From UHGV virus genome UHGV-1363143: 64,000 bases of DNA, one strand, 5' to 3'. Positions 18,778 through 57,822 of the stretch are shown here, one piece after another. Both the position numbers and the translations under genes were made by a program. How positions within the stretch are numbered: the first letter of the stretch is position 1; every line of letters starts with the position of its first letter. The DNA comes from a virus. The notes under the pieces were generated by a model. The model had not been told where the DNA came from. It saw nothing but the letters and a program-made list of their open reading frames with translations, and made no database searches.

Positions 18778-19638
18778 TTATTTTCCCATCATCAATTTGT
18801 GAGATTTTATAACATTTTCACATAATGCTATAACTGTTAATGTTCCAGTATGTCCATAACCACTAGCTATATTGATATTAGAATAATGATTTAAGATATC
18901 TTCTTTATCAAAATCTCCTACACCAGGTATTCCATCTACTCTATCCATAGAGCAATCAATAATTGTTTCTACAAAAGATCCATCAATATCGCAACTGTTA
19001 AACATTTTTCTTTTGCCACATCCAGTTACAATAATATCTGTTTCTTCCAATCCCTTTTCCTTTTCATATTCTGCACTTTTAGTATGAAGAACGGTTGGTG
19101 TCATATTCTTTTGTAACGCTAATTGCATTAAAGGTTTACCTATCAAATTACTTCTATTGAATATAGCAATAGACTTACCAGTTAAATCTCCATGTACATA
19201 CTCAAGTAGCTTAATAACCCCTAGAGCAGTACATGGTACTAACGCTTTATCACTTCCTGAAACTAATAATCCTTTTTGTTCATTAGTAAATCCATCTACA
19301 TCTGCATTTGTAGGAATTAACTTTGCTATATCTTCTTCAGTTAACTGAGGGAATGGTAATTGAACTATAATTGAATATCCTTCATGTTTACTTATGATAT
19401 TTTCTAAAGTAAATAGTAATTCTTCTTTAGTTCTTCCACTCCATTTAACTTCTGCCAGTGCTACTTCAATACCTAACTCATTTGCTACTTTCATTTTATT
19501 AGAAACGTATTTCTTACTTGGCTCATAGTAACGTTCAGCCATAATAATCAATAGTTTAGGTGTAGATTTGAGATGCTTAATCTCTATCCTAAGTTGCTCT
19601 TTCCATTGTTCTGCGAATGCTTTAGTGTTAATTTCCAT
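18778..19638 (-). CDS. folD: bifunctional 5,10-methylene-tetrahydrofolate dehydrogenase/cyclohydrolase
   Basis: SKKYVSNKMK (YxxxK), IIVQLPFP, DVDGFT, PCTALG, NRSNLIGKPL — near-diagnostic FolD motifs; 286 aa. Confidence 0.85.
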   Translation of the reverse strand: MEINTKAFAEQWKEQLRIEIKHLKSTPKLLIIMAERYYEPSKKYVSNKMKVANELGIEVALAEVKWSGRTKEELLFTLENIISKHEGYSIIVQLPFPQLTEEDIAKLIPTNADVDGFTNEQKGLLVSGSDKALVPCTALGVIKLLEYVHGDLTGKSIAIFNRSNLIGKPLMQLALQKNMTPTVLHTKSAEYEKEKGLEETDIIVTGCGKRKMFNSCDIDGSFVETIIDCSMDRVDGIPGVGDFDKEDILNHYSNINIASGYGHTGTLTVIALCENVIKSHKLMMGK

Positions 19639-25562: not shown

Positions 25563-26324
25563 CTAAGCTATGTTAACTTTTAAACTTTCTGTTTCTATTG
25601 TTGTTGCATTAAACATATGCAGATCTCCAGTTATTTTATTAAATCCTATAATATTATTTAAAATATTAAAAGTAGTAACTGCACTGGTTATGTTTGCACC
25701 TATGTTTTGAATATTTTCTAACATGATTTCACCACAGCTTGCTGTAGGTTCTTTTATTTCCTCGTCTTCAAGTATTTGAGGAAAGTAAGTACTAGCAGAT
25801 GGAAGTACCACTTCATCACGAGTTCTATAAGCTATTACAGTTTGTCCTGTAAGTTCATCTAAGCTACCACTATTACCAGTATCAATTGCAATAATTCCTG
25901 GGCAATTATGATTAGTAAATTCAAAATCATTAAATGCTTGGTCAATATATTTCCTAGCTTCATTATTATCTACACATGAAACTATTATATTTGTTGTTCC
26001 ATAAGATCTATCTAATAATTTTAAAACATCTTCTTTAGATGATATGTACTTATCGACATAGGATATTTCCATTCCAAATACTGCAGAATACCTATCAGAT
26101 AAAACTTCAGCTTTTAATTTTCCCACATCACTTTCTAAGAATTTTTGTGTTCTTAAATTTTTTTCTTCTACTCTATCACCATCAACTAATATAACTTTAT
26201 GTTTCATATTATAAACCTTGTTATTTCCTATTAGCTGACTTAAAAATGAAATAAGGTGAGAACCAGTCCCACCTACACCTACCACTATTATATTATAAGA
26301 TGAATTCTTTTTAAGCTCTATCAT
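25563..26324 (-). CDS. E1-like adenylating enzyme of the ThiF/MoeB/HesA family
   Basis: VVGVGGTGS Rossmann motif; DGDRVEEKNLRTQ; VSCVDNNEARKYI; C-terminal SCGEIM...AVTTF matches the MoeB CxxxGV region; 253 aa. Confidence 0.8.
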   Translation of the reverse strand: MIELKKNSSYNIIVVGVGGTGSHLISFLSQLIGNNKVYNMKHKVILVDGDRVEEKNLRTQKFLESDVGKLKAEVLSDRYSAVFGMEISYVDKYISSKEDVLKLLDRSYGTTNIIVSCVDNNEARKYIDQAFNDFEFTNHNCPGIIAIDTGNSGSLDELTGQTVIAYRTRDEVVLPSASTYFPQILEDEEIKEPTASCGEIMLENIQNIGANITSAVTTFNILNNIIGFNKITGDLHMFNATTIETESLKVNIA

Positions 26325-26346
26325 TATATTGCCTCCTTACAAGCCT

Positions 26347-26913
26347 TTAGCCTTTAGTTTGGAATTTAAGAAGAACTTCCAATGTTCCAGTAGATTCATC
26401 AAAGTCATAGAATACCTTATCTTTCTTAAAGTTTGGAAAATTATATTCTGTAACTAATTTAACTCTGATATCTTCAAATTTTGCATTGGTATCTTCTTCG
26501 ATATATATTTCTCTACCGAATACTTTAACAATCCTTGGACCATCATATTTAGGTTCTTTTGGTTTTGAACTCTTCTTCTTAGAAGATTTCTTTGCTTCAG
26601 TTTTAGTTCCATCAGGATTTCTATCCTTATCATATTCAACTAAATGATCTATAGCAAAGGCTATTGCATCACATGCATTAGTAAATGCATTTGGATTTAA
26701 TGTAGAATATCCACATTCATTATCTGCAGGAGTTAGAACATCAAATCTTCCATCTCCCCATTCCATTACTCCTATCGTTAAATTTTTATATTTAATTTCT
26801 CTATTTTCTCTAAAGAAAGCCTCAAACTGCTCTCTAGTCATAGACTCTGTAATATTTGTATCCTCCTCATCATGAAGATCGCTTATATAATTAATTGTAT
26901 TTTCTGTTGTCAT
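26347..26913 (-). CDS. protein with a C-terminal ubiquitin-like beta-grasp domain ending in a single Gly
   Basis: C-terminal ~62 aa RIVKVFGREIYIEEDTNAKFEDIRVKLVTEYNFPNFKKDKVFYDFDESTGTLEVLLKFQTKG* has the ubiquitin-like secondary-structure pattern; the ORF ends in Gly immediately before the stop. Confidence 0.5.
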   Translation of the reverse strand: MTTENTINYISDLHDEEDTNITESMTREQFEAFFRENREIKYKNLTIGVMEWGDGRFDVLTPADNECGYSTLNPNAFTNACDAIAFAIDHLVEYDKDRNPDGTKTEAKKSSKKKSSKPKEPKYDGPRIVKVFGREIYIEEDTNAKFEDIRVKLVTEYNFPNFKKDKVFYDFDESTGTLEVLLKFQTKG

Positions 26914-26931
26914 AACATCTCTCTCCTATTC

Positions 26932-27633
26932 TTATCTTAAATTATCTAAAAAGCTTTGATATGTTGGTGTATTGTATGATTGCACTAAAATATTATTATC
27001 AAACGAAGAACCTTCCATTAATTCTAAAAGTTCTTTATATGAAAATGGACTAGAATTACTTCCAATGTACCCATCATTATTATTTGTCATTGATAAAAAC
27101 ATTTCAGGAATCATTACTATATTGCTTAAATCATTTAATTCAAAATCACTTAATGTATTCCCTCCAAGGCATACACTTTTTGTATCGAATACATTACTGT
27201 AAGGGTATCTATATATAGGCATGTCCATAGTTATAGGACCATTTTGCACACATCCTATTCTTAACGAAACGCATTTATTATTACATACTTTAATAGCATA
27301 TAAAGTTCTAGGCATAGCTACTTTCTTGTATACTTTTTTCGCAAGTTTCATATCTGCAGGAACTTGTTCTCTCAATAAAACATACCATTTAGATTTACTA
27401 GAGAATATTTCTTTGACTTGAATTGTAGATATCATATGATCTCCTGGTAGTATATCTGATACTTGAACGTTAGCTGATGAGTTATCAAAATTATCTTCTG
27501 TAGTGGAACAATTTAATAGTGATAATAAAGTTTCAAAACTTATATTTTTATTTGTCTTAACTCCATTTTCATTTTCAACAATAACTTTACAGTAATTACT
27601 ATCATTCAATTCTATGATTGTTCTCTCGCTCAT
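26932..27633 (-). CDS. E2-like (UBC-fold) protein with a variant HPN motif
   Basis: PIYRYPYSNVFDTKSVCLGG corresponds to the UBC HPN(I/V)x3-4GxICL active site with the catalytic Cys conserved; 233 aa. Confidence 0.5.
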   Translation of the reverse strand: MSERTIIELNDSNYCKVIVENENGVKTNKNISFETLLSLLNCSTTEDNFDNSSANVQVSDILPGDHMISTIQVKEIFSSKSKWYVLLREQVPADMKLAKKVYKKVAMPRTLYAIKVCNNKCVSLRIGCVQNGPITMDMPIYRYPYSNVFDTKSVCLGGNTLSDFELNDLSNIVMIPEMFLSMTNNNDGYIGSNSSPFSYKELLELMEGSSFDNNILVQSYNTPTYQSFLDNLR

Positions 27634-28592: not shown

Positions 28593-28871
28593 CTTATTTA
28601 CATAAAGATCTAATACTAATTCATTTTTCTTATTCCTAGAAACTAATATAGTTGCCTTTTCTGTTTTTGTAGGTTTATAATCATCCTCATATTTTGTTAT
28701 AAATATTACTTCAGCCCCTTTTTCATTATCTATAATATTAGCTAGAGGCTGAAAGTCAATCTTGCCAAGGTCAAAGTCAAATGATGCTATAACTTCATCA
28801 TTGACTTTAATCTCTTCGACATAATGAGTCTTATTTTTAAGCCTAATCAAAGTTACAACTATATTATCCAT
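28578..28871 (-). CDS. hypothetical protein
   Basis: 97-aa ORF overlapping the ligA stop codon. Confidence 0.3.
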   Translation of the reverse strand: MDNIVVTLIRLKNKTHYVEEIKVNDEVIASFDFDLGKIDFQPLANIIDNEKGAEVIFITKYEDDYKPTKTEKATILVSRNKKNELVLDLYVNKKEQA

Positions 28872-30762
28872 TTATGATTTCCTTTAACTCATCTAATGAA
28901 TTGATTATAGGAGTACCTAAATCTGTAGCTTTGGTGTACTTAGTAGTACCTTCCTCACCAGGACTAGCTAATAAATAACTTGTCTTAGAAGAGACAGAGC
29001 CACTAGTCTTATGTCCAGCATCCTTAATCATTTGTTCGATTTCTTTTCTAGGAATATCAAATGAACCTGTAATAACAAATGTCTTAATATCTGAATTAGA
29101 AATTTTTTTAGCTACTGTAGTTACATCTAAAGGTCTTACTCCAGCATCCCATAGCATTCCAAATCTTTCTGCTCCATATTTATTAAGATTCTCTATCATT
29201 TTAGGTCCTATTTTTTCAATAGAAGCTATAGTTTTATAACCCGTCTTTACTTCATTTATTAAATTAGGCAAAGTACGAATAGTATTAGCTATATCTTCGC
29301 TAGCAGACTTTCCTATTAAAGGTATGTTAGCTGCTAAAATGAATCTCTTTAATTCAGTTTGTTTTGCTTTTTGAATACTGTTATATAATTTTTCAGCACT
29401 CTTTTCAGCAAACCCTGGTAGATTTAATATATCTTCTTTATGAAAATATAATGGCGTTGTGAAATCATACTCATATTCTTTTTCTTCACAATAATTCATT
29501 ATCTTTATAATAGTTTCTTTTGATAATCCAGTTATATTTAAAGCTTCTCTTGATGAAAGTTTGATTGTTTTACCTAATTCTTGAGCGTCACATTCTTCCC
29601 CAGTGCAATATAATATATTATTTTTAAATTCTGTAGGGGCTCCACATACTGGACACTTCTTAGGAGGTATTATTGGAAAAGTATCTCTAGTTACCTTAGG
29701 TTCACCTTTTATTATTTTAGGTATAACATCATTAGCTTTAACTACAAATACTCTCTCATTAATTCTGATATTAAGGGCGTTAATAATGCTAATATTGTGT
29801 AATGTAGCTCTATTAATTGTAGATCCTAATATTCTAATTGGTTCAATTTCTCCAACGGGTGCAATTATACCAGTTTTCCCTACTTGCCAAGTAACAGATT
29901 TAAGCGTAGTCCATTCACCTTGGGCTTCAAACTTAACAGCTATCGCACCATTAGGATGATGTCTAGTAAATCCAAATTTCTTACTTCCATCATGCTTTAT
30001 GACTAACCCATCAATATCATAATCTAAAGAATCCCTATATTTATCTTCATAAGTTAATATATAATCTAATGCTTCTTCTTCAGTCTCTGGCTTAAAATTA
30101 TCTACAGTATTCCAGCCTAACATTTGTAAAGACATAATTTGATTACTTGAATCATTTGATTCTTCAGTTCTAATCATATTGTAAGCAAAAGCTTTTAATC
30201 CTTTTACTTTATTAATATCAAGTTGTCTAAGCATACCAGCTGCAGCATTACGAGTATTATCAAATGGTTTTTCTCCATTTTTTATTTTTTCTTCATTTAA
30301 CTTATTAAATTCAGATTTTAACATTACAACTTCTGATCTTATAGGAACTTGAACATTACTAAATTCGCCTATTCCATCGACATTCGTTACTTTTAATGTA
30401 ACTACTTCACCAATTTCTCCGTTTCCTCTAGTCACATGTTCTCCACTTGGATATGATACTAAAGTTAATCCATCCATTTTAGGCTGTATAGTAACAGGCC
30501 ATAACCTATGGATATGAGATTTTAATTCATCAATCTTTGTAATTTGGCACTTATCTAATGAAGATATATTTGTTGTATGTTGATATTTAACGCTAGTTTC
30601 ACTAGCTTCTCCTGGCACATAATCATATTCTTCAAGACCAGTTAATTCTAAGTATCTTGCTTTAAGTGCATCATATTCAAAATCTGATATCTCAGGAGAA
30701 TCTTGATTATAATATAAGTTATCATGATAATCTAATAACTTTTTTATTTCATTGGCATTCAT
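28864..30762 (-). CDS. ligA: NAD+-dependent DNA ligase
   Basis: adenylation motif KMDGLT, ligase N-terminal Ia domain, OB/Zn/HhH/BRCT-length C-terminus; 632 aa. Confidence 0.9.
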   Translation of the reverse strand: MNANEIKKLLDYHDNLYYNQDSPEISDFEYDALKARYLELTGLEEYDYVPGEASETSVKYQHTTNISSLDKCQITKIDELKSHIHRLWPVTIQPKMDGLTLVSYPSGEHVTRGNGEIGEVVTLKVTNVDGIGEFSNVQVPIRSEVVMLKSEFNKLNEEKIKNGEKPFDNTRNAAAGMLRQLDINKVKGLKAFAYNMIRTEESNDSSNQIMSLQMLGWNTVDNFKPETEEEALDYILTYEDKYRDSLDYDIDGLVIKHDGSKKFGFTRHHPNGAIAVKFEAQGEWTTLKSVTWQVGKTGIIAPVGEIEPIRILGSTINRATLHNISIINALNIRINERVFVVKANDVIPKIIKGEPKVTRDTFPIIPPKKCPVCGAPTEFKNNILYCTGEECDAQELGKTIKLSSREALNITGLSKETIIKIMNYCEEKEYEYDFTTPLYFHKEDILNLPGFAEKSAEKLYNSIQKAKQTELKRFILAANIPLIGKSASEDIANTIRTLPNLINEVKTGYKTIASIEKIGPKMIENLNKYGAERFGMLWDAGVRPLDVTTVAKKISNSDIKTFVITGSFDIPRKEIEQMIKDAGHKTSGSVSSKTSYLLASPGEEGTTKYTKATDLGTPIINSLDELKEIING

Positions 30763-32766: not shown

Positions 32767-34585
<1,819 letters not shown>

Positions 34586-37154: not shown

Positions 37155-37532
37155 TTACACCGCCTTAAAAGGATCATCTTGTTTAATGTAAGATTTTCTT
37201 CCGAATTGTATGTCAGCAGCTTGATCTATTTTATTCATATATTCAACTGATAATGAGCCTATTTTTTCTCTTAACTGAGTCTTATTAATAGTAGTAATTT
37301 GTTCTAATAGAGCCATAGAAGGTTCTTTTAAACCAAAGCCTTCAATTAATACATGCACACATAACTCTTTAAGCTCACTACTCAATGGAATAGCTTGAAG
37401 AACTGGTGCGAATATGTTATTTGTGTTATTTGAATAAATTATTACTGGTCTAACGCCAATTTGCTGATTCCCTATTCCATACAATTCAGCATAGAAAATA
37501 TCTCCTCTTCTTATTTTTGGTCCTCTCCCCAT
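37155..37532 (-). CDS. PemK/MazF-family endoribonuclease toxin homologue
   Basis: RRGDIFYAELYGIGNQQIGVRPVIIYSNNTNN...APVLQAIPLSS matches the MazF/PemK fold signature (RGdI..v.l....G.E..k.RPvlVvS); 125 aa. Confidence 0.75.
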   Translation of the reverse strand: MGRGPKIRRGDIFYAELYGIGNQQIGVRPVIIYSNNTNNIFAPVLQAIPLSSELKELCVHVLIEGFGLKEPSMALLEQITTINKTQLREKIGSLSVEYMNKIDQAADIQFGRKSYIKQDDPFKAV

Positions 37533-40304: not shown

Positions 40305-40919
40305 TTAATATATTTTCTTCTTCTCAGCAAAGTGGTCTACGATGTATTTACTCCAACCTTCTAATTTTTCATAATTAGCTATTAATTCATTTATGTCCAT
40401 CCATTGGCCAATTAAATTGTCCTTTTCTTTAACTATAACTTCACCAGTAGCATGTGCTAATATCACAACTCCTGTATGATCACTTGTACTTGAAGCTAAA
40501 TCTCTTACATAACCAATTATTTCTAATGGTTTTAATATATCAGCTTGAACTTCTTCAAATAATTCTCTTACAGCTGCTTTGAACAATACTTCTCTTCCTT
40601 CATCACATTTATCTATGTGACCTCCACAAGCTATGCTTACTTTATCGACAAGTCTTGAATCACCAGCAACTCTTTTTGTTGTAAATACTTTTTGACCGCT
40701 TTCATCTAATATTAGAATATACGGTATTATTTGTTGCATATAAGGTTGTCCTTCTGCATCATACCTATAAATAAATTCACCCATAGAATCAAACTGTCCC
40801 CAAATTCTAACATCATGTTTTAATGGCGTAAATCCGTCAGGTATAAACTCTACTTTTGAATATGGAACAGCAAAAACTTTTTCTTCACCATATTTGGCTA
40901 TCAATTGTTTTCTATTCAT
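40305..40919 (-). CDS. Nudix hydrolase
   Basis: Nudix box GGHIDKCDEGREVLFKAAVRELFEEV (Gx5Ex7REUxEExGU); 204 aa. Confidence 0.8.
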   Translation of the reverse strand: MNRKQLIAKYGEEKVFAVPYSKVEFIPDGFTPLKHDVRIWGQFDSMGEFIYRYDAEGQPYMQQIIPYILILDESGQKVFTTKRVAGDSRLVDKVSIACGGHIDKCDEGREVLFKAAVRELFEEVQADILKPLEIIGYVRDLASSTSDHTGVVILAHATGEVIVKEKDNLIGQWMDINELIANYEKLEGWSKYIVDHFAEKKKIY

Positions 40920-44630: not shown

Positions 44631-45383
44631 TTACTTAATTTCAAATTTATCTTCCTGAGTTTGAATTGTTACAGAAGGGATAACAGTATCTCCTAAATAG
44701 AATTTACCATCTTCAATTCTTCCATTTTTCTTAAGCATACTCTTATCAAGCTTCTCAACTGTTTCTACTTTTATTAAGTCAGGATTCACTTCTTTAACTA
44801 ATGATTTAAGTTCATCCTCATCTCCATAAATATATTTAGGTTGCTGCTTTTTAAACGATAAGTTTCCATATGGAAGTTTTATAGTCCTAGTTTTTTTGCC
44901 TTCTAATTCTTGCATAGCAAAATCTTTTAATATACTAGAGAAATATGATTTCTTTCTATCTATTTCATCTTGTCTTTGCTTTCTAAATGCATTAACTGCC
45001 TTTGAAGTTCTTTCAATTTCTGAATCACATAACTCATTCATTTCTGTTTCTTCAAGTATTAATTGATTATAAAGCTTAATATAGAAATTAGCTTGAGCCT
45101 TAGTCATTGAACCTGGTTCTTCTATAGAATCCACATTTAAATCAGTCTCTGCAAATTCATTCATAAAATCTCTTAGTTCTCCTAAGAAATCTTTTGCAAA
45201 TGCATTTTGAGGCTCTGTAACAGGAGTCTCTACTTTTTCTTCTTTTGGAAGTAAAGTATCAACCATATCTCCAAAAGGCATAATATTATTAGGCTTTTGT
45301 GAGAACGGGTTATTTTTAATTGCTCCTGGTGGTGGAGCAGGAATTGGCATAGGTGGTACAAGTCTTGCATTTTCCATTAACAT
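44631..45383 (-). CDS. Mu Gam-like host-nuclease inhibitor (Ku-like) candidate
   Basis: central coiled coil followed by KTRTIKLPYGNLSFKKQQPKYIYGDEDELKSLVKEVNPDLIKVETVEK, resembling the Gam-family C-terminal domain; Pro-rich N-terminus; 250 aa. Confidence 0.4.
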   Translation of the reverse strand: MLMENARLVPPMPIPAPPPGAIKNNPFSQKPNNIMPFGDMVDTLLPKEEKVETPVTEPQNAFAKDFLGELRDFMNEFAETDLNVDSIEEPGSMTKAQANFYIKLYNQLILEETEMNELCDSEIERTSKAVNAFRKQRQDEIDRKKSYFSSILKDFAMQELEGKKTRTIKLPYGNLSFKKQQPKYIYGDEDELKSLVKEVNPDLIKVETVEKLDKSMLKKNGRIEDGKFYLGDTVIPSVTIQTQEDKFEIK

Positions 45384-45390
45384 ATCCTCC

Positions 45391-46452
45391 TTAAATAAGA
45401 TTTTTGTTTATATAATCCATTATTGTATTTAACCTTTGATTATAATTACCGCCAACTTCAACAATTTTATCTTCAAATCCTCTTTCGATATACATATGTT
45501 TAAGTCTTTGGTGTAATTTTTCTCTTTTTTCTTGGTCGCCGTTAAGTCTTTGGCCATCTGATACCCACTCAACGTCTGGCTTAAGTAAAAATACTACATC
45601 ATATTTATCAGGATCTACACAAGCTTCTACTTGTGCATTTCTCTCACCCATATATAAAATGCTATAATATTGGGTAATAGTTGCATCTGTATCAAAGAAA
45701 CATAATTTATTAGCACATCTTAAAGCTTCGTAATCTTGCTCAACTTGTTGATGAGCAATTCTAGAAAAGTCTTGAGTAGTAAATATCTCCTCATTTCCTC
45801 CAAGGAATCTTTGAGCATAATATCTACCTACTTCTTCACTCCAAGAGGTGTGATATAATTTAGCCAATGATTTAGTTAAAGTAGTTTTCCCACAACTTTC
45901 ACTTCCAGCTATTAATACTTTCTTAGTAAAGAAAGGTCTTGCAGGTCCTAATATATGATCCCAATGTTTGATAGGATTGCTTCTAATTTCAGTAGCACTA
46001 ATGTTATAAGTAGTTCTCATTGGATCAAATAGATCTACCTTAGCATTAGGGAAATACTCTTCTAGCTTTTCTACATATTCATGCTCTCCACAAAAGAAAA
46101 CATCTATATTGTCTCCTACTGCTCCTTTCATTAGTTCAGCCCACATTGGCCATCCATTAGGATACTCAGGTATATTAGATTCATCTAATTTAACTACTTT
46201 GATGTGAGGCATATCTATAAGCTCTTGAGATAACCATTGTATTCTAAGGTTAACATTAATTTCAGGAATGCCTGATTCTTTACAGATTCTTCTGCTTCTT
46301 TCTATATTGTCACTTACTACTACATAAAGTTTTTGAACCTTTGTGGCAGCATTTAATATAGCTGTTAAATGTCCTCTATGTGGAGGAAGGAATTTACCAA
46401 AGTAAACTCCAACCTTAGGCATATCATTTAAATTGAAAATTGAACCACTCAT
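45391..46452 (-). CDS. nadR: bifunctional NMN adenylyltransferase / ribosylnicotinamide kinase (NadR-type, no HTH)
   Basis: NMNAT motif GKFLPPHRGHL (HxGH); C-terminal P-loop kinase AGSESCGKTT; 353 aa. Confidence 0.8.
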   Translation of the reverse strand: MSGSIFNLNDMPKVGVYFGKFLPPHRGHLTAILNAATKVQKLYVVVSDNIERSRRICKESGIPEINVNLRIQWLSQELIDMPHIKVVKLDESNIPEYPNGWPMWAELMKGAVGDNIDVFFCGEHEYVEKLEEYFPNAKVDLFDPMRTTYNISATEIRSNPIKHWDHILGPARPFFTKKVLIAGSESCGKTTLTKSLAKLYHTSWSEEVGRYYAQRFLGGNEEIFTTQDFSRIAHQQVEQDYEALRCANKLCFFDTDATITQYYSILYMGERNAQVEACVDPDKYDVVFLLKPDVEWVSDGQRLNGDQEKREKLHQRLKHMYIERGFEDKIVEVGGNYNQRLNTIMDYINKNLI

Positions 46453-47133
46453 TTATTTCACCTCTTTTATTTGAGCCTTTTTCCATGAATATAATCCAAA
46501 TATAGAATTGCATAGGTAAACTATCCACATAATTAATGTAGCCATCTCTCCTACACCATTTATTAAAGAGAATGCCCACATGATTATTGATACTACATTG
46601 ATAATAACCCATATCACCCATTGCTCCATAAATTGTTTAACCATTAATATCATTGCAATGATAGATAGAATTGTTGAAGTTGAATCTAAGAATGGTAGAT
46701 AATTACCTAAAGACTTTAAGAAGAATCCATAGAAAATAACTAAGGAAACTGATATTCCGACTAATCTAATTCTTCCTTCTGTGCTAAGACTTTTTGATTC
46801 TATTTCTCCATCATTCTCTTCCTTAGCTTTCTTCCACATATAAAGACCTATAAATTGCATAGGCAAGTAATATAACGCATTTAACATTACTTCTCCATAG
46901 AAGCTAGCTTGGTAAGATAAAATAGCATAAGTAGAAACATTAATAGCACCAAATAAATAATTTAATGACATTCTCTTAGCTACTAGGATTACAGATAAGA
47001 TACCTGTTAATGAAGATACAATCGCTAAGGGACTATCTCCCCAATAAAGGCTTAAACCTAGTGTAGATAATGTCGCAACTGTTACCCATAAAATTTCATA
47101 AAGCTTCCAGTTTTTAAATATTGTTTTGTTCAT
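46453..47133 (-). CDS. pnuC: nicotinamide riboside transporter PnuC
   Basis: multi-TM protein with PnuC-family motifs (EILWVTVATLS...NALYYLPMQFIGLYMWKK); 226 aa; stop codon abuts the nadR start. Confidence 0.8.
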   Translation of the reverse strand: MNKTIFKNWKLYEILWVTVATLSTLGLSLYWGDSPLAIVSSLTGILSVILVAKRMSLNYLFGAINVSTYAILSYQASFYGEVMLNALYYLPMQFIGLYMWKKAKEENDGEIESKSLSTEGRIRLVGISVSLVIFYGFFLKSLGNYLPFLDSTSTILSIIAMILMVKQFMEQWVIWVIINVVSIIMWAFSLINGVGEMATLIMWIVYLCNSIFGLYSWKKAQIKEVK

Positions 47134-47231
47134 ATACTTTTCTCCTTCGATTTTTGTTTCAAAATTATGTTATGTCTTAAAAAATAAAAAGACTACTTTT
47201 ACGAAAAGCTTCGCAAAAATAGTCATATTTT

Positions 47232-47264
47232 ATTTATAAAAATAGAGACTGCTATGCAGTCCCT
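47232..47264 (-). terminator. rho-independent terminator overlapping the helicase stop codon
   Basis: stem agagactgc/gcagtccct with one mismatch, followed by TATTTTTAT on the minus strand. Confidence 0.45.
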
Positions 47265-49093
47265 TTAGCTAAACTCTTAATTAGCTCTAAATCATAATTT
47301 TCTTTTTTAGCAACAACTTTTAGTTGAATTTCATCCCAACTCTCTTGTGCTATTAGTTGATATACAAATACGTTATCATGAACGCTATCAGCTCTTTCTA
47401 GTCTACCATGTCTCTGTGTCTGAATAGCATAACTACCAGCTATATCATATTCAATTAGATATTTGCATTTAGATAAATTTAAACCTTCAGCTCCAGCATC
47501 AGATAACAATAATACCTTATAATCTGGATTATCTCTAAATTTATCATATACTTCAACACTTCTTTCTTGTGATGATAATGTTCCATTAACATATGCTATT
47601 TTAATGTTTTTATTGTATTTATGGATCCTCTCAGTTATAACGTGTTGCATTCTTTCAAATTTTGAAAATACAGCAACCTTTTCTCCTGATTCAACAATTT
47701 CTTCTATTAAATCCATAAATAAATCCATCTTAGGATTCTTCTTTGTTTTCACTACATACTTTTTAGCAAATTCAGAATCACTATCCTCTAAAAGCTTTGG
47801 TTCGTTTGCAATTTCTTGAGCAAATGTTTGTAGTGCTAATATTTGAGCTCCTATTTTTTGAAGCTCAGGATTTAATTTAGCTTCTAGCTCTGTTCTACAT
47901 TTAGATCTTATTGCGAAATCTTGTTCCTTCAATTCATCTAATTGTTGCATGATTGTATTATTCATATCATACTGTTCTTCTGTAAGTGTAACATACCTTT
48001 GAATGACCTGTAATTTAGGTAATTGATCACTTATTTCTTCTTTTGATTTAATCATAATATATGGTCCAATAGTTTTAGTAAGTTTATTGCCGTTACGCAC
48101 TCCTGCAATCCTGCCTCTCCCTGCCCATTTAATAAATTCAGATGAGAATTTACTCCATGAAGGAAATAAGTCTGGTTTAATAAATTTAAAAATTGAATAA
48201 ACGTTTTCAGGATTTTTTGTAATAGGAGTAGCTGTTGCTCCAACCTTTATTTTTGCTTGGAACTCTTGTAACGCTTTTGATCTTTTACTATCTTTTGAAC
48301 CTATCATGTGAATTTCATCAGCAAAGATAAAATCTAATTTCATTGAATGAAGTTGTTGACGAATAGTATCATCAAGTAAGGCTTCATAATTAACTACAAA
48401 CAAATCATGTCCTTCAAACTGTTCTTTAAACTTAGAGGATATCTTTTCTTCTAATCTTAAATTCTCAAGTTTAATATCACTGATTTTATCTTTGTCTTTT
48501 ATCTTGTCTAGTGTTTTAATTAACTTTTTATTCTTGTTAATTTTAGACTTTGTGTATGCTGAAATACTTGATGGCGATTCAACTGCTACAGCTTTTAAGT
48601 CACTAAACTTGCTAACTTCATTAACCCATTGAGTTTTTAATGAAGCTTTTACAACAATTAAGCCTTTTCCTGAAATCATTCCTCTTTCAGTGGCCTCGAT
48701 AAACATTCCTATTCCTGATGGAGTTTTACCAGCTCCACAAGGCAATACTAGTAAAGCATTATTATTATCAAGTACGAATTTAATAGCCTCTCTCTGATAT
48801 ATATATGGCTTTAATTTCATGGATAAGCCTATTTCATCAAGTGATTTATCGTATCTTCGTATTTTAGGTAAACTGTGTTCTACACTTATGTTTAAATAAC
48901 TATAAGCATTGATAAAAGATTGAAGATCTTCTTCATACAGTTCCCATTGTTTAGTGATAAAATTGAAGTGTACAAATGGATTGTACACAACAATATTTAA
49001 AAATTCACTAAGTTCAGTTTTTTTGCCCAAGAATTTCAACCTATATTTTCTAGAAATAACTCTTTCTATTTTTAATAGTTCCATAGGTTGCAT
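47252..49093 (-). CDS. SF2 DEAD/DEAH-box-type DNA helicase
   Basis: Walker A PCGAGKTPSG; FADEIHMIG (DExH); GATATP (motif III); C-terminal helicase domain (QTQRHGRLER); 613 aa. Confidence 0.75.
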   Translation of the reverse strand: MQPMELLKIERVISRKYRLKFLGKKTELSEFLNIVVYNPFVHFNFITKQWELYEEDLQSFINAYSYLNISVEHSLPKIRRYDKSLDEIGLSMKLKPYIYQREAIKFVLDNNNALLVLPCGAGKTPSGIGMFIEATERGMISGKGLIVVKASLKTQWVNEVSKFSDLKAVAVESPSSISAYTKSKINKNKKLIKTLDKIKDKDKISDIKLENLRLEEKISSKFKEQFEGHDLFVVNYEALLDDTIRQQLHSMKLDFIFADEIHMIGSKDSKRSKALQEFQAKIKVGATATPITKNPENVYSIFKFIKPDLFPSWSKFSSEFIKWAGRGRIAGVRNGNKLTKTIGPYIMIKSKEEISDQLPKLQVIQRYVTLTEEQYDMNNTIMQQLDELKEQDFAIRSKCRTELEAKLNPELQKIGAQILALQTFAQEIANEPKLLEDSDSEFAKKYVVKTKKNPKMDLFMDLIEEIVESGEKVAVFSKFERMQHVITERIHKYNKNIKIAYVNGTLSSQERSVEVYDKFRDNPDYKVLLLSDAGAEGLNLSKCKYLIEYDIAGSYAIQTQRHGRLERADSVHDNVFVYQLIAQESWDEIQLKVVAKKENYDLELIKSLAKGTA

Positions 49094-49101
49094 TCCTCCA
49101 T

Positions 49102-49941
49102 TTAGTCATGAACTCCAATTATATCTAGCATTTCTTTACAGATATTAACTGTTTCTAGCTCAAGATCGTATTTTTCGCAGATATAAATAGCTGATTTTCT
49201 GCTCAACAGGTCTTTAGCCAACGAATCTCTTTCTTCTTTATCTATATAGCATTGTTCATCTAAAGAATCATATAGTAATTTAAATTTCTTACCAAGTCTT
49301 TTGTATACCTTAGGAATATACGATTTTGATACCTCTGCTTCCTCGGCTATTTCCGCTTGGCTTTTCCCTTTTATTTTAAGAAGATAAACTCTTCTTTCTT
49401 TATCTGTGCAGGCATCTATTAGTTCTAATAAAAGGTAAATAAAGTCAAGCAAGAACTCTTGAAATACTACTACATCATCTATATCACAATTATCTCCCAC
49501 TAAATTCAAGAGTTCTATACTTTTCTTATCCGAAGAAGGATTAGGAATTATAGAATCTAGCGAATAATTCATCTCATTTCTTAATATGTTATTTTTTTGA
49601 GCCTCTAAAGAACGTTTAATCATTCCAAGCTTGGACTCACATACTATAAATATCCATGATGACAATCCAGATCTATCTAGATCACATTTATTTACATTTT
49701 TAAATATGTGCGCCCATAGCTCATTATGCATATCTTCTAGATCGTATTGACCTTTACTCAAAGTATTAATGGCTGGATACCACTTTTTAGATATATCCCA
49801 CACTAATCTATCATACTCTTCATAAAATATAGTTGTTTCCGGTTCTTTACCATCAATAACACACTTCAGAAATTCTTTATTGCTATTAATATTTTTTAAA
49901 TTCATAATTCTCCTCCCCATTTTACAGACACTATTCTGCAT
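49102..49941 (-). CDS. sigma-70-family RNA polymerase sigma factor (regions 2 and 4)
   Basis: region-2-like DLEDMHNELWAHIF...SSWIFIV; region-4 HTH ERRVYLLKIKGKSQAEIAEEAEVSKSYIPKVYKRLGKK; 279 aa. Confidence 0.6.
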   Translation of the reverse strand: MQNSVCKMGRRIMNLKNINSNKEFLKCVIDGKEPETTIFYEEYDRLVWDISKKWYPAINTLSKGQYDLEDMHNELWAHIFKNVNKCDLDRSGLSSWIFIVCESKLGMIKRSLEAQKNNILRNEMNYSLDSIIPNPSSDKKSIELLNLVGDNCDIDDVVVFQEFLLDFIYLLLELIDACTDKERRVYLLKIKGKSQAEIAEEAEVSKSYIPKVYKRLGKKFKLLYDSLDEQCYIDKEERDSLAKDLLSRKSAIYICEKYDLELETVNICKEMLDIIGVHD

Positions 49942-51181
49942 ATCTATACATATATTGCTTGTCTATTTCTGTAACAAATCTCGACTCTTGAGTCCTGATA
50001 TAGCTTCCTTGCTTAAGCGTATAAATAGGCCTTGTAATAAAAAGGAGTTTTTTTGCTCGTGTAACGGCAACATACATTAACCTTCGTTCTTCTTCGTAAT
50101 CTGCCTCTGTAGTTGCTCTATATGAAGGTATTACTCCCTCATTTGATCCTGCAATAATAACAATATTCCATTCCAATCCTTTACTGCTATGCATAGTTAA
50201 TAACTGTACGCAGTTCTCTTCATCCTGATTTTGTTCTGCAATAGTGCTATCTAAATTTATATTGTCGGATAATTCTTCCATACTTTCAAAGTGAGTGGCT
50301 AATTCTATTAGCTCTTGAATATTTTCTATTCTATCGTCAGCAATGTTTTTCTTTTCACTCTCTCTGATATAAGGAATATAACCTGTTATTCTTAGCATAG
50401 TCTCTATTGCAATGTCTGGAGTGTTAGTCTCCATTTCTACAGATAGTTCCCCTACTATATCAAGAAAATCTTTAGCACTTGACTTTGCTTTTCCTGTTAA
50501 ATTTATTTGCTCTAATGCTTCAATTAAATTACATGAATTTGTTTTTGCAAAGTCAATTATTTTCTCGACTGTTTTGTCTCCTAGTCCTCTTTTTGGTGTG
50601 TTTATTGCTCTTGAGAAAGCAATTGTATCATTAGGGTTTATTATTAACCTAAAATAAGAAATTATATCTTTAATTTCTTTTCTACTATAAAAGTTGGTTC
50701 CTCCTACAATTTTATAAGGAATTCTATATTTAAGAAGAGCATCTTCTATTTGTCTAGATAGATAGTTCATTCTATATAAAATAGCTATATCACTGTACTT
50801 GTAACCATATTTTTTAACTGATAATTCAATTAATTTAACTATTCTTGCTGATTCTGCCATAGGATCTTTTTCAGGAAAAAATATAATTGGATTACCTTTT
50901 TCATTATTAGATCTTAAGCTTTTTTCTACTAGCTGTTTATTATTACTTATTAAACTTTTAGAAGCGTCAACTATCATTGAAGTACTTCTATAATTAGTAT
51001 TTAATAGATGTACTCTCATGCCAGTAAATATGTTTCTCATATTCATTACAGCTTCTATCTTAGCACCTCTAAAAGCATAAATGCTCTGGTCATTATCAGC
51101 AATCATACAAATATTTTGGTTTTCTCCTGTAAGAAGATATATTAATCTTAAATCCATTACAGAAGAATCATGACTCTCATC
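49931..51181 (-). CDS. UvrD/PcrA/Rep-family helicase, exon 2 (begins in motif II DESHDSS; includes motif III and the 2A/2B domains)
   Basis: the frame is open upstream of the called Met: ...DESHDSSVMDLRLIYLLTGENQNICMIADNDQSIYAFRGA aligns with UvrD DEFQDTN...LRLL...VGDDDQSIYGWRGA; 1251 nt in one frame. Confidence 0.75.
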   Translation of the reverse strand, partial: DESHDSSVMDLRLIYLLTGENQNICMIADNDQSIYAFRGAKIEAVMNMRNIFTGMRVHLLNTNYRSTSMIVDASKSLISNNKQLVEKSLRSNNEKGNPIIFFPEKDPMAESARIVKLIELSVKKYGYKYSDIAILYRMNYLSRQIEDALLKYRIPYKIVGGTNFYSRKEIKDIISYFRLIINPNDTIAFSRAINTPKRGLGDKTVEKIIDFAKTNSCNLIEALEQINLTGKAKSSAKDFLDIVGELSVEMETNTPDIAIETMLRITGYIPYIRESEKKNIADDRIENIQELIELATHFESMEELSDNINLDSTIAEQNQDEENCVQLLTMHSSKGLEWNIVIIAGSNEGVIPSYRATTEADYEEERRLMYVAVTRAKKLLFITRPIYTLKQGSYIRTQESRFVTEIDKQYMYRYAE

Positions 51182-51762
51182 CTTTTTTGTAAATCTAATT
51201 AATAATATAATGTTTCATCTTTTTAGAATAATCTCCTTTCAACACGAACTTACGTTCTTATCATATTTTAGCATATTTCCAATATATACTCAATAATAAA
51301 TACATTTAACAAAAGTATTTATTATTCACAAAAAAAGCGTAACATTAACAATAATATTAGATTTTTCTTACTTTCGCAAGTGTGGACTATATCATCATCT
51401 CATAATTACTAATTTTAGCCCTATTGCTAGTTCTAGTTTTATGAGAATGCCTCTTGTTTCACGCAGAGTTACCTTTCGGCACTTTGCTAGTCTCTGAACC
51501 TTCTTCCACCCTGGCATATAATTATATGTTACATTGGAAGCTTGGCTGCTGATTCCCCATTATTAAGGTCCTTAGCACCATCATATTTAATGATAGCTTT
51601 TATTTCAGCTTAGACTATCCTTAGTTATTTTTTCTGCCTTTCGGCGACATTCACGCTTGTCCTTACGGACTACGTTGTAGTTAACTTAGGCTTTAGGGAT
51701 TGTTCCAGCAATTAAAGAGGTACGCACACTACGTCACCGTAATATGGGCCGATGAGTTCAGC
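51182..51762 (-). ncRNA. group I self-splicing intron (581 nt, ORF-less) interrupting motif II of the UvrD-like helicase gene
   Basis: R-like element GUUCAGAGACUAGCA (rc of 51486-51500) and S-like element GAUAUAGUCC (rc of 51384-51393) in the correct order; P8-like stem UCUCAUAA/UUAUGAGA; GAAA tetraloop hairpins (gccGAAAggc); upstream exon ends in U and the intron ends in G; local GC content above the surrounding DNA. Confidence 0.7.
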
Positions 51763-52407
51763 AACGATATATTGGTATTGTCTATTGATTTCAGATTTGA
51801 CTTCAGGGAATTGTTCTAACAATCTAACCGTCTTATAAATTAAATCATCAAAATCTACACAGTTATCTTGCATCATTCTGGAATGATAGAGTTGATAGAG
51901 TTCTGCGAATTGTCTTTCTATTGTATTGGTTGATTCTCTCAACGCTTGACTTGGACTTATTAGCTGACATTTATAATCTGATATTTTCCATAATACCTTA
52001 TCAGCTTCAAAATTGTAACCAGATGTTTTAATGATTTCTTTCATTAATTTCTTGCAATCTTCAGTATCGCATATACTAAAAGATTTAGTAAGTCCAATAT
52101 AATTTGCATATTTTCTTAAAAATCTACTGCATACACTATGGTATGTACCGACCATTATACTATTTGCTTCAGGTCCTATAGTAGCAGTTACTCTTTCTTT
52201 GATTTCCATAGCTGCTTTCTTAGTAAATGTAAATAATATAATTTTATCAGCCGGTATTCCGCTTTTAATCATGTTAGCTGTTCGAACTACTAAGGTAAAA
52301 GTCTTACCAGCTCCTGGACCAGCTATAACCATTGAAGGTCCATGAATATCTATTGCGGCTTCCTTTTGTTCATCATTAAGTCTATTAAATAATTCTGATA
52401 GTTCCAT
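51763..52407 (-). CDS. UvrD/PcrA/Rep-family helicase, exon 1 (Walker A through the start of motif II)
   Basis: MELSELFNRLNDEQKEAAIDIHGPSMVIAGPGAGKTFTLV...QYQYIV matches the UvrD N-terminus up to ...RYILV(DEFQDT). Confidence 0.75.
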
Positions 52408-57141: not shown

Positions 57142-57822
57142 CTATCCTATAAAATAAGTCTTACATTCTAAATCTTTTAAGATATATTGCAAGTCATTGC
57201 TATTAGTTAAGAACATGCTATCTATATCTCTCATGGCAAATCCATACTTCTTTTTTGTATTCCATATAATTTGATTTCCTGAGCCTACTGAACTTAATAA
57301 TCCATCTTCTTTTTCTCCATCCCATAGTCTTTCATCTTGCTTATACTCCCCATCAACTATAATATCTACGATTTTAGCTAATCTTCCTAGCTTATCTCTG
57401 AATATACTTTCTGGAGTTAAAGCTGAATTAACTATAAGACCTTTACCTATATACTTCTTTAGTTCTAAATGAGTATAAATCATAATGTGAAATCCATATT
57501 TTTTAAGTTCTTCACACAAAATTAGTAGATTATCTATTTGATCAGTTGGTTCACCTCCACCAATAGTTATATATTTATTAGGAGCAAATTCATTTATATG
57601 TTTAGCCATATCTATTGGATTGTGACTAATTTCTGCTTTTGAAACATCCCATGTACTGCTGTTAAAACAACCTTTACATGGATTACCTAGCATAGCCTTT
57701 TTACATCCTAATAAAAATATCTCTGTTCTATTATTATCATCTGGACTAGGGCCTGCAGTTTTTACACTCCATCTTACATCCCTCAATAATAATCCATTTA
57801 AATCATTGTTAGCCTTGTACAT
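57142..57822 (-). CDS. divergent NrdG-like radical-SAM activating-enzyme paralogue with a Cx8Cx2C cluster motif
   Basis: GCKKAMLGNPCKGCFNSSTW; GGGEP; IMIYTHL; IIVDGEYKQDERLWDG...GSGNQIIW is collinear with the canonical nrdG at 37551-38036; 226 aa. Confidence 0.6.
   Translation of the reverse strand: MYKANNDLNGLLLRDVRWSVKTAGPSPDDNNRTEIFLLGCKKAMLGNPCKGCFNSSTWDVSKAEISHNPIDMAKHINEFAPNKYITIGGGEPTDQIDNLLILCEELKKYGFHIMIYTHLELKKYIGKGLIVNSALTPESIFRDKLGRLAKIVDIIVDGEYKQDERLWDGEKEDGLLSSVGSGNQIIWNTKKKYGFAMRDIDSMFLTNSNDLQYILKDLECKTYFIG

Follow-up and report, generated by a model that had tools for sequence, protein, structure and literature searches.

What would a phage gain from two abutting genes that resemble the bacterial machinery for nicotinamide riboside (NR) salvage? 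The question is raised by a 64,000-nucleotide stretch of the virus genome UHGV-1363143, which we call the window. On its minus strand, a gene for a PnuC-family transporter is followed without a gap by a gene for a NadR-like enzyme. Our preferred answer, which we regard as likely from sequence comparisons, is that the pair is a NARP3-type nicotinamide-riboside salvage module of a human-gut jumbo phage of roughly 240 kb and that it keeps NAD+ available. The genes and the two enzyme domains are located as follows.

46453..47133, minus strand: pnuC, a PnuC-family nicotinamide riboside transporter (226 aa)
45391..46452, minus strand: nadR-like gene for an NMN adenylyltransferase/ribosylnicotinamide kinase without a helix-turn-helix (HTH) domain (353 aa)
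45937..46416, minus strand: NMN adenylyltransferase (NMNAT) domain of NadR (about aa 13-172; GKFLPPHRGH at aa 19-28, ISATEIR at aa 151-157)
45433..45927, minus strand: ribosylnicotinamide kinase (RNK) domain of NadR (about aa 176-340; PF13521, E = 7.5e-34)

Both open reading frames are intact. Their junction reads ...GTG AAA TAA ATG AGT..., with the pnuC stop codon TAA directly before the nadR ATG and a spacer of 0, which confirms the adjacent stop and start codons described in an earlier reading made from the sequence alone. A comparison with one 95%-identical relative gives dN/dS values of 0.057 (nadR) and 0.21 (pnuC); the range given for the pair is 0.06-0.28, and the reference values are 0.064 for the neighbouring primase gene and 0.13 for a Gam-like gene. 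The two genes are under purifying selection, and they are real genes and not chance reading frames. Their linkage is clade-wide, since each of the six related contigs examined (NadR 62-95% identical) has both genes on one strand with pnuC upstream, and frequent pseudogenisation of the pair was not seen in this clade.

The phage origin of the window is backed by PHROG matches and by a 241 kb IMG/VR contig that has the same gene layout and a 95%-identical NadR. An identical PnuC occurs on a 238 kb contig. These matches point to a clade of human-gut jumbo phages, the genome size of roughly 240 kb being that of the relatives and the window itself covering 64 kb. Megablast of the locus found no close relative among deposited phages, and for the polymerase the best match has about 33% identity. 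The phage also encodes the anaerobic ribonucleotide reductase NrdD. The scan of a genome collection for relatives was queried with P0077, a 60% NadR relative.

The surroundings of the pair contain three further features that bear on its expression.

47191..47264, minus strand: two terminator-like hairpins between the SNF2 helicase stop codon and pnuC, from a terminator scan
47134..47190, minus strand: conserved block (ACATAACATAATTTTGAAAC AAAA) with a GGAG ribosome-binding site, a candidate promoter/leader of pnuC-nadR
44631..45383, minus strand: Mu Gam-like gene (PF07352, E = 5e-14; PHROG 2205)

The second hairpin upstream of pnuC has a stem of 15 bp with a T-run after it, and it is kept in two relatives (L003 and L043); judging from this architecture, the hairpins may act as terminators. 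The block directly 5' of pnuC is near-invariant in the window and the same two relatives while its flanks diverge, and it could serve as the promoter and leader of the two genes. Upstream of pnuC there is no good sigma-70 consensus, and promoter-like matches are no commoner there than in shuffled sequence. A search for a leader riboswitch, including the Rfam pnuC and nadA motifs and any other family, returned no Rfam family at threshold within the window, and the matches at E <= 10 in 46900-47500 are at chance level only. The Gam-like gene begins 7 nt past the nadR stop codon, and the gene order through it is the same in L003, L043 and L046. It is probably co-transcribed with nadR, and we mention it as context outside the NAD+ pathway. 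More broadly, the pair sits in a replication block, with an SNF2 helicase gene upstream, genes for Gam, primase and NrdD downstream, and LigA and Pol III alpha elsewhere in the window. The two genes appear to start their own transcription unit in this block, downstream of a conserved putative terminator.

NadR belongs to the bifunctional family. It matches both PF13521 and PF01467 of Pfam, PHROG 3462 (E = 2e-106) and NCBIfam NF005988 (248.8 bits, cutoff 201) over profile positions 61-406 of 411. Since this last match starts at profile position 61, the N-terminal HTH domain is absent from the phage protein. Just 12 residues precede its first strand, and the frame upstream is pnuC, in line with the earlier description of a NadR without this domain. 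The PDB entries that match in sequence are 9x6f (the best, E = 1e-70, residues 10-341), 1lw7, 8x7f and 6gye. We take 9x6f to be the NARP3 enzyme Bas30_86. The AF2 model of NadR, with pLDDT 88.5, superimposes on 8x7f and 1lw7 with TM scores of 0.84-0.86; over both proteins of the pair, the predicted folds match solved structures at TM 0.84-0.87. Two rows from phage records were left out of the alignment used for structure prediction.

The HxGH, ISxTxxR, Walker A, Walker B and LID motifs of NadR are all intact. In the NMNAT domain, G27, H28, S47, E91 and R157 are invariant in 31 phage and bacterial homologues. In the kinase domain, Walker A is GSESCGKT (183-190), Walker B is LCFFDTD (250-256) and the LID is WVSDGQR (296-302), and K189, D254, D285, D299, G300 and R302 are likewise invariant in the 31 homologues. 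With the NF005988 score above its cutoff, these motifs, the fold match and the low dN/dS of nadR, the assignment as a putatively bifunctional NadR-type gene holds. Longer homologues in the clade were considered as possible PnuC-NadR fusions, but no PnuC lies in their extensions, which consist of zinc-ribbon-like CxxC repeats or of unknown sequence.

PnuC matches PF04973 (E = 1e-46), PHROG 1880 and the NCBIfam equivalog TIGR01528, for which the score of 150 bits is 3.5 times the cutoff of 42. A sequence search of the PDB returned a sole match, the PnuC of N. mucosa (4QTN, E = 8e-43, residues 3-220), and the AF2 model (pLDDT 89) superimposes on it with a TM score of 0.86. The family score, this fold match and purifying selection together uphold the transporter call made from the sequence.

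By homology, the pair would work in three steps. PnuC would be a facilitator in the host membrane through which external NR diffuses inward. The kinase domain at the C terminus of NadR would then convert NR and ATP to NMN, which is trapped inside the cell, and the N-terminal adenylyltransferase domain would convert NMN and ATP to NAD+. The complete logic from NR through NMN to NAD+ that had been read from the sequence is backed by the family, motif, fold and selection tests, and it stands as a prediction from sequences and models. The substrate, activities, expression timing and selective benefit of the pair are all putative. The salvage model assumes a supply of NR in the gut niche.

A homologous system suggests what the module may be for. 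NARP3 comprises the NadR-like Bas30_86 and the PnuC-like Bas30_87 of the T5-like Escherichia phage TrudiRoth, for which biochemistry and crystal structures are available (Yan et al., Sci Adv 2026, PMC13464706). Experiments on this prototype, done by heterologous expression only and not in its native phage, showed NR transport, conversion of NR to NAD+, and rescue from both Sir2-HerA and DSR1 (PMC13464706). The pair described here would guard the infected cell against NAD+-depleting host defences as Bas30_86/87 does, a role suggested by homology at about 37% identity to that prototype. The module may also feed NAD+-consuming phage enzymes such as LigA, whose NMN product NadR could re-adenylate.

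The second of these roles might be the one that was selected. The biochemistry would then be the same, with housekeeping NAD+ supplied for phage replication, NadR recycling the NMN of LigA, and PnuC and the kinase topping up. We consider this metabolic role possible, though somewhat doubtful. Its NAD+ consumer would be the ligase LigA.

28864..30762, minus strand: NAD+-dependent DNA ligase LigA (PF01653, PF03120, PF00533; PHROG 3869, E = 1.5e-138)

LigA carries adenylation, OB and BRCT domains and aligns end to end with the T. filiformis and E. coli enzymes (1DGS, 2OWO), including the NAD-specific domain Ia (YH...SD.EYD) and KxDG. With domain Ia and the KxDG motif aligned, the NAD+-dependent ligase noticed in the sequence-only reading is genuine, and its NAD-specific domain favours a metabolic role. 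For each nick that it seals, LigA uses up one NAD+ and sets NMN free, and NadR adenylates NMN; this established enzymology and the position of the pair inside a replication block also fit such a role. In the window the ligase gene lies about 15 kb from the pair, a loose linkage that weakens the argument. In relatives L041 and L042, however, it lies about 1.5 kb upstream of pnuC, and LigA, pnuC and nadR all fall within 6.5 kb. A supply of NAD to the phage ligase was already proposed for the "NAD-jumbo phages" of animal and human guts, which carry pnuC, nadR and LigA (Microbiome 2024, PMC11662467), so the earlier suggestion that the pathway could feed the phage ligase is not a fresh idea. Two observations tilt the balance toward a counter-defence role, with which the metabolic role is in any case compatible. 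The T5-like phages that carry the pair gain demonstrated defence evasion (PMC13464706), and distant members of the present clade add NADAR, a DarG-like Macro, an NAPRTase and an ADP-ribose-hydrolase-like Nudix around nadR, of which the NADAR, Macro and Nudix genes point to conflict.

A Nudix gene is also present in the window itself.

40305..40919, minus strand: Nudix-fold protein (PF00293, 36.7 bits)

This gene had been listed beside the pathway in the sequence-only reading. Its Nudix fold is real by the PF00293 match, but its tie to NAD finds no backing in PHROG, NCBIfam or the PDB. The protein falls in PHROG 8902, a group of unknown function, it has no match in NCBIfam, and its sole PDB relative is the uncharacterised TM1382. 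In BLASTP it showed no significant similarity to the Nudix genes beside nadR in relatives L044 and L045. Unlike those ADP-ribose-hydrolase-like genes, the window Nudix gene was therefore rejected as part of an NAD module. A Pfam scan of 46 of the larger open reading frames in the window found no NAMPT, NadD/E, NadM, Macro, NADAR or sirtuin, and the only further NAD(P)-binding domain among them is that of FolD.

A second alternative concerns the biochemistry itself. The transporter might be like PnuT and PnuX and carry a different vitamin or nucleoside, and the enzyme related to NadR might be only an NMN adenylyltransferase or only a kinase. The Pnu family also holds transporters of thiamine and other vitamins (PMC5749112). 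With several substrate classes in the family, the NR assignment of PnuC rests on the equivalog score and the linkage to nadR. Some substitutions at binding positions could be taken to favour another substrate. PnuC has G44 in place of N45 of Bas30_87, a residue essential for NR binding there (PMC13464706), and M161 in place of Q196 (paper numbering) of the N. mucosa transporter. Each deviant residue is nevertheless shared with one validated NR transporter, the glycine with the crystallised N. mucosa PnuC and the methionine with Bas30_87. The binding residues Q93, N179 and Y206 are kept, the first two corresponding to Q94 and N180 of Bas30_87 and the third to the N. mucosa Tyr, so that three of the four N. 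mucosa contacts (Q, N and Y) are preserved, and at the fourth the protein shares Met with Bas30_87.

The enzyme can be compared with Bas30_86 in the same way. Among the NMNAT-pocket residues tested in the prototype, seven of nine are identical (K10, F11, S37, E80, P84, G89 and F110 are K20, F21, S47, E91, P95, G100 and F120 here), the exceptions being S112, which is G122, and D115, which is E125. In the "site 1" of the kinase domain, K168 and D275 are kept as K178 and D285, R167 and E230 are K177 and D240, and P and F stand at the positions of K163 and D164. This loss of K163 and D164 might speak for the second alternative, but the non-conserved positions of this site come from docking and not from a substrate-bound structure. 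The invariant Walker A, Walker B and LID motifs and the strong purifying selection on the kinase domain argue for a functional kinase, and the TIGR01528 score and the clade-wide linkage of the abutting pnuC and nadR argue for NR as the substrate. A different substrate or a single-function enzyme is accordingly improbable in our estimation, and the NR salvage module remains the preferred reading.

The two genes appear to differ in ancestry. The nearest cellular NadR proteins are encoded by chromosomal genes of Clostridia (about 60% identity). The nearest PnuC proteins come from non-Clostridial genes at about 50% identity, and the named ones include Bacteroidota and DPANN archaea. At the one Clostridia nadR locus examined (L004), no pnuC occurs within about 6 kb. 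Since NadR is nearest to Clostridia and PnuC to non-Clostridial genes, the comparison suggests that the pair was assembled independently. Close cellular homologues such as these Clostridia genes might recall a host "moron" of recent capture that plays no part in the phage life cycle, yet this is very unlikely, given that the pair has the GC content of the rest of the phage (about 0.30), that the pair and its orientation are kept across a clade diverged to 62% NadR identity, that dN/dS is low and the upstream regulatory block conserved, and that the apparent sources of the two genes differ, with no neighbouring pnuC at the Clostridia locus.

How new is a salvage module of this kind? A PnuC-NadR route had been put forward in the sequence-only reading as a distinct solution beyond NARP1 and NARP2. 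The NARP1/2 paper itself already proposed that a phage operon for PnuC and NadR provides a third way to rebuild NAD+ (Osterman et al. 2024, bioRxiv 10.1101/2024.02.11.579819), and Yan et al. demonstrated it and named it NARP3, so that this claim of novelty falls away. The phage pair is a distant further example of the NARP3 type and not a new concept.

Like the prototype, it consists of two adjacent co-oriented phage genes that encode a PnuC-family transporter and an HTH-less NadR with NMNAT and RNK domains. The differences are considerable, however. Identity between the two pairs is about 37-40%, and the prototype order of nadR followed by pnuC is reversed here to pnuC followed by nadR with abutting codons. 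The prototype resides in a 110 kb enterobacterial siphovirus, whereas the present pair belongs to a gut jumbo phage of roughly 240 kb and 30% GC. K163, D164, S112 and D115 of the prototype enzyme and N45 of its transporter are replaced, and NadR is nearest to Clostridia genes (60%) rather than to those of T5-like phages.

Other known systems share parts of this arrangement. The NAD-jumbo phage model was put forward for 174 gut jumbo phages, 68 with pnuC and 90 with LigA (PMC11662467). Those phages resemble the present one in being gut jumbo phages of >200 kb (the size here is taken from relatives) with pnuC, nadR, LigA and a near-complete replication set, and the same strategy was proposed for them, in which the phage produces NAD+ for NAD-dependent enzymes of its own. 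That paper is a gene-content survey, however, and its named cluster nhp215 has nadM, which was not found in the scanned open reading frames of the window. The Tsamsa-like Bacillus siphoviruses (Joanripponvirinae) also carry pnuC followed by nadR on one strand (Tsamsa gp71 and gp73), although in Tsamsa a small open reading frame lies between them. Their pairs and those of enterobacterial jumbo and large myoviruses are 37-41% identical to the pair described here, but they belong to unrelated phage lineages and hosts and are known from uncharacterised copies. Phage records matched by NadR and PnuC number 776 and 474, and annotated PnuC and NMNAT proteins run to hundreds.

The bacterial NadR/PnuC salvage systems of H. 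influenzae, L. lactis and Salmonella (1LW7, 6GYE, 8X7F, 4QTN) have the same two folds and motifs, and in such systems NR enters by facilitated diffusion and is then metabolically trapped by the kinase domain (PMC7221760). The NadR of enterobacteria carries at its N terminus an HTH repressor domain that the phage protein lacks, and pnuC and nadR are unlinked in E. coli (PMC13464706), whereas they abut here. NARP1 (Adps and Namat) and NARP2 (Nampt and an NMNAT/Nudix protein) are likewise two-gene phage routes that rebuild NAD+. However, their enzyme families are unrelated to the present pair, and they start from ADP-ribose and nicotinamide (NARP1) or nicotinamide and PRPP (NARP2), neither of which requires an imported precursor.

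The conceptual gain from this locus is small, as the pathway, enzymology, structures and anti-defence role have been published before. What it offers is modest and concerns distribution and evolution: an intact and strongly constrained pair occurs in an uncultured gut jumbo phage far from every deposited phage. We tentatively propose, as a real possibility, that NARP3-type modules have more than one origin, the present one having been assembled in the phage lineage from genes of differing ancestries, fixed in a replication module next to LigA, and, in sister lineages, enlarged by genes for NADAR, DarG-like Macro, ADP-ribose-hydrolase-like Nudix and NAPRTase to form an NAD/ADP-ribose conflict island. 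If so, NARP3 would extend well beyond the range described as "largely Enterobacteriaceae-restricted" when 124 enterobacterial operons were counted (PMC13464706), and the module would double as an NMN-recycling partner of the phage LigA. The reversed gene order and the apparently different gene sources support the repeated evolution of NAD+ replenishment from imported NR, which would be much more widespread than those operons indicate. Such a distribution matters for estimating the number of phages able to evade NAD+-depleting immunity, and for selecting diverse NadR/PnuC pairs in phage engineering.

The PnuC-NadR pair of this phage is a distant, well-preserved example of the known NARP3 type, the published phage route that combines a PnuC transporter with a NadR enzyme, and it differs in minor ways, namely in its host niche, the order of its genes and its probable origin. 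The pair consists of two minus-strand genes:

46453-47133, minus strand: pnuC, predicted nicotinamide riboside (NR) transporter gene, ORF of 226 aa
45391-46452, minus strand: nadR, predicted bifunctional NMNAT and ribosylnicotinamide kinase gene, ORF of 353 aa

These coordinates and the minus-strand junction (...GAG GTG AAA TAA ATG AGT GGT...) bear out the sequence-only reading that the ORFs abut, since TAA is followed directly by ATG and the pnuC stop therefore adjoins the nadR start without a spacer. An AGAGGTG ribosome-binding sequence lies inside the 3' end of pnuC. PHROG places the two proteins in phrog_1880 and phrog_3462, families labelled as auxiliary metabolic genes of phages. Comparison with a relative of 95% identity gives dN/dS values of 0.057 (nadR) and 0.21 (pnuC), next to 0.064 for the primase and 0.13 for Gam.

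NadR matches both PF13521 and PF01467 and scores 248.8 bits against the NCBIfam equivalog NF005988 (cutoff 201). The alignment spans only positions 61-406 of this 411-position profile, and the helix-turn-helix is thus absent, as had been proposed. Its top match among solved structures is 9x6f (E = 1e-70), which is taken from its residue numbering to be the phage enzyme Bas30_86 of the NARP3 prototype; 1LW7 (H. influenzae), 8X7F and 6GYE (L. lactis) also match. The AlphaFold model (pLDDT 88.5) has TM scores of 0.84-0.86 to 8X7F and 1LW7. The protein carries these motifs:

aa 19-28: GKFLPPHRGH, NMNAT domain
aa 151-157: ISATEIR, NMNAT domain
aa 183-190: GSESCGKT, Walker A, kinase domain
aa 250-256: LCFFDTD, Walker B, kinase domain
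aa 296-302: WVSDGQR, LID, kinase domain

The key residues are invariant across 31 aligned phage and bacterial homologues, and the Lys of Walker A and the Asp of Walker B have been described as essential for NadR of L. lactis and of H. influenzae (PMC7221760). In the NMNAT pocket, K10, F11, S37, E80, P84, G89 and F110 of Bas30_86 are identical here; S112 has become G and D115 has become E. Kinase 'site 1' is less alike: D275 and K168 are identical, E230 becomes D and R167 becomes K, but P and F stand in place of K163 and D164, two positions that derive from docking rather than a substrate-bound structure. Six jumbo-phage homologues (P0011, P0018, P0020, P0030, P0019 and P0027) have N-terminal extensions at the position of the bacterial helix-turn-helix. 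Some of the extensions contain a single CxxC...C zinc-ribbon-like repeat or several of them (as much as ~260 aa in P0020) and others are unrelated sequence of ~140 aa; they could be real fusions or gene-calling artefacts.

PnuC matches PF04973 (E = 1e-46) and scores 150 bits against the equivalog TIGR01528 (cutoff 42). The N. mucosa NR transporter (4QTN) is its sole match among solved structures (E = 8e-43, nearly full length), and the AlphaFold model (pLDDT 89.4) has a TM score of 0.86 to it. Q94 and N180, which are essential in the prototype transporter Bas30_87, have their counterparts in Q93 and N179. At the position of Bas30_87 N45 the residue is Gly, which N. mucosa PnuC also has. Of the four NR contacts in the N. 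mucosa protein, three are kept and one is Met, a residue shared with Bas30_87.

Each of the six related contigs examined has pnuC upstream of nadR, with both genes on one strand. They adjoin directly in L003, L043 and L046, and small ORFs spanning 1-3 kb lie between them in L041/L042, L044 and L045; L041 and L042 also carry LigA ~1.5 kb upstream of pnuC. In L044 (7052-14012, NadR identity 69%) and L045 (1-12626, 62%) the pair sits within an NAD/ADP-ribose island with a NADAR domain protein, a DarG-like Macro domain and a NAPRTase-family gene, and a NudE/ADPR-diphosphatase-like Nudix lies immediately 3' of nadR. None of these four island genes occurs in the window. Among cellular NadR proteins, the nearest (~60% identity) come from Clostridia MAGs of rumen and gut, Christensenellales and Aristaeellaceae among them, where the genes are chromosomal and lack the HTH. 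For PnuC, the nearest named cellular proteins (~48-50%) belong to Bacteroidota and DPANN archaea. The T5-like and Tsamsa-like phage copies share no more than 37-41% identity with the pair. This pattern of identities, rather than a phylogeny, suggests that the pair was put together within this phage lineage, separately from the NARP3 operons of enterobacterial phages. At the Clostridia MAG locus L004 (6001-8314), which holds the closest bacterial NadR (347 aa, HTH-less), an esterase and a small Nudix gene come next, in ordinary chromosomal surroundings with RadA, KsgA and EF-G. No pnuC lies within ~6 kb of nadR at this locus, the single Clostridia locus examined in detail.

Two terminator-like hairpins follow the helicase gene upstream of pnuC. 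The second (a 15-bp stem and T-run) is conserved in relatives, as is a ~25 nt block, ACATAAYATAAYTTTGAAAYAAAA, just before the pnuC ribosome-binding site. The hairpin and block are located as follows:

47134-47264, minus strand: window
5178-5330: L003
9248-9366: L043

Their conservation suggests that pnuC begins a transcription unit, and the block may be a candidate phage-specific promoter. A sigma factor gene of the phage's own lies at 49102-49941. A Mu Gam-like gene starts 7 nt past nadR, and no riboswitch was found with Rfam.

The sequence-only reading had presented the pair as a solution distinct from the earlier pathways NARP1 and NARP2. Its interpretation is reasonable, but both halves are already in print. 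Osterman et al. (bioRxiv 10.1101/2024.02.11.579819) noted that phage NadR genes are usually in an operon with PnuC and could represent a further NAD+ reconstitution pathway, which Yan et al. named NARP3 (Sci Adv 2026, PMC13464706). In that work Bas30_87 binds NR, Bas30_86 converts NR to NAD+, rescue of NAD+ levels and of phage plating from Sir2-HerA and DSR1 takes both genes, the enzyme's crystal structures were solved, and a survey counted 124 operons, most of them from phages of Salmonella and Escherichia. Support of the phage's own NAD-dependent ligase is likewise a sound idea but not a new one: among 174 gut jumbo phages, 68 carry pnuC and 90 LigA, and these 'NAD-jumbo phages' were proposed to make NAD+ for their ligase (PMC11662467).

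A tblastn search of deposited phage records found NadR in 776 and PnuC in 474. Per-genus counts are equal for Klebsiella, Escherichia, Bacillus, Prevotella, Erwinia and Aeromonas phages and nearly so for Salmonella phages (173 versus 176); Bacillus phage Tsamsa shares the order pnuC then nadR. NadR-like genes also occur in Enterococcus (27 records) and Lactobacillus (18) phages, neither being among the genera listed with PnuC, and Vibrio phages have 333 NadR-like matches versus 78 for PnuC. Phages with NadR but no transporter of their own are therefore common.

The window has 30% GC throughout, with essentially all long ORFs on the minus strand. It encodes Pol III alpha, a DnaG-type primase, SNF2 and UvrD helicases, the sigma factor, Mu Gam, Rad52, a RecA-like protein, NrdD, NrdG, thymidylate kinase, UDG, FolD, GroEL and a tail-associated lysin. 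No close relative was found among deposited phages. A 241 kb IMG/VR contig has the same layout (NadR identity 95%), and 10 public contigs, the longest of 238 kb, encode an identical PnuC; the one with a named source comes from a human gut metagenome. NadR homologues of 62-93% identity lie on contigs of 226-256 kb, which indicates a jumbo-phage clade.

Several minus-strand features of the window, GroEL and FolD among them, lie at these positions:

32767-34368, minus strand: full-length GroEL (PF00118, E = 4e-80)
18778-19638, minus strand: FolD-type methylene-THF dehydrogenase/cyclohydrolase
57142-57822, minus strand: radical-SAM activase-like protein, a second besides NrdG
51365-51769, minus strand: group I catalytic intron (RF00028, 53.7 bits, E = 9e-13), between ORFs 51712-52407 and 49931-51157
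25563-26324 and 26932-27633, minus strand: ThiF/E1-like and Prok-E2_D genes, either side of an unknown 188-aa ORF (26347-26913)
37155-37532, minus strand: MazF/PemK-family toxin gene, directly downstream of NrdD-NrdG

The intron, overlooked by a whole-window Rfam scan at the gathering threshold (score 50), contains no homing-endonuclease-sized ORF. It interrupts the UvrD-like helicase gene, which consequently appears as two ORFs; the gene is split likewise in L043. The region 25563-27633 adjoins Pol III alpha and looks like a phage-borne ubiquitin-like conjugation cassette, PRTRC or Bil-like. The PemK gene is retained in L041-L043, and no antitoxin was identified for the window toxin.

LigA (28864-30762) has domain Ia and KxDG, which mark it as a bona fide NAD-dependent ligase, as first read. 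The gene at 40305-40919 is of Nudix type, but it belongs to the uncharacterised TM1382-like group and no NAD link is demonstrable. The NMN that LigA releases is the direct substrate for the adenylyltransferase domain of NadR, which makes a recycling loop between the two enzymes plausible from established enzymology. In the proposed pathway, NR would diffuse into the cell via PnuC, the NadR kinase domain would trap it by conversion to NMN, and the NMNAT domain would turn NMN into NAD+. The benefit would be that NAD+ is kept up during infection, which by analogy with the NARP3 prototype would counter NADase defences and would also serve NAD-consuming phage enzymes. These two roles are mutually compatible.
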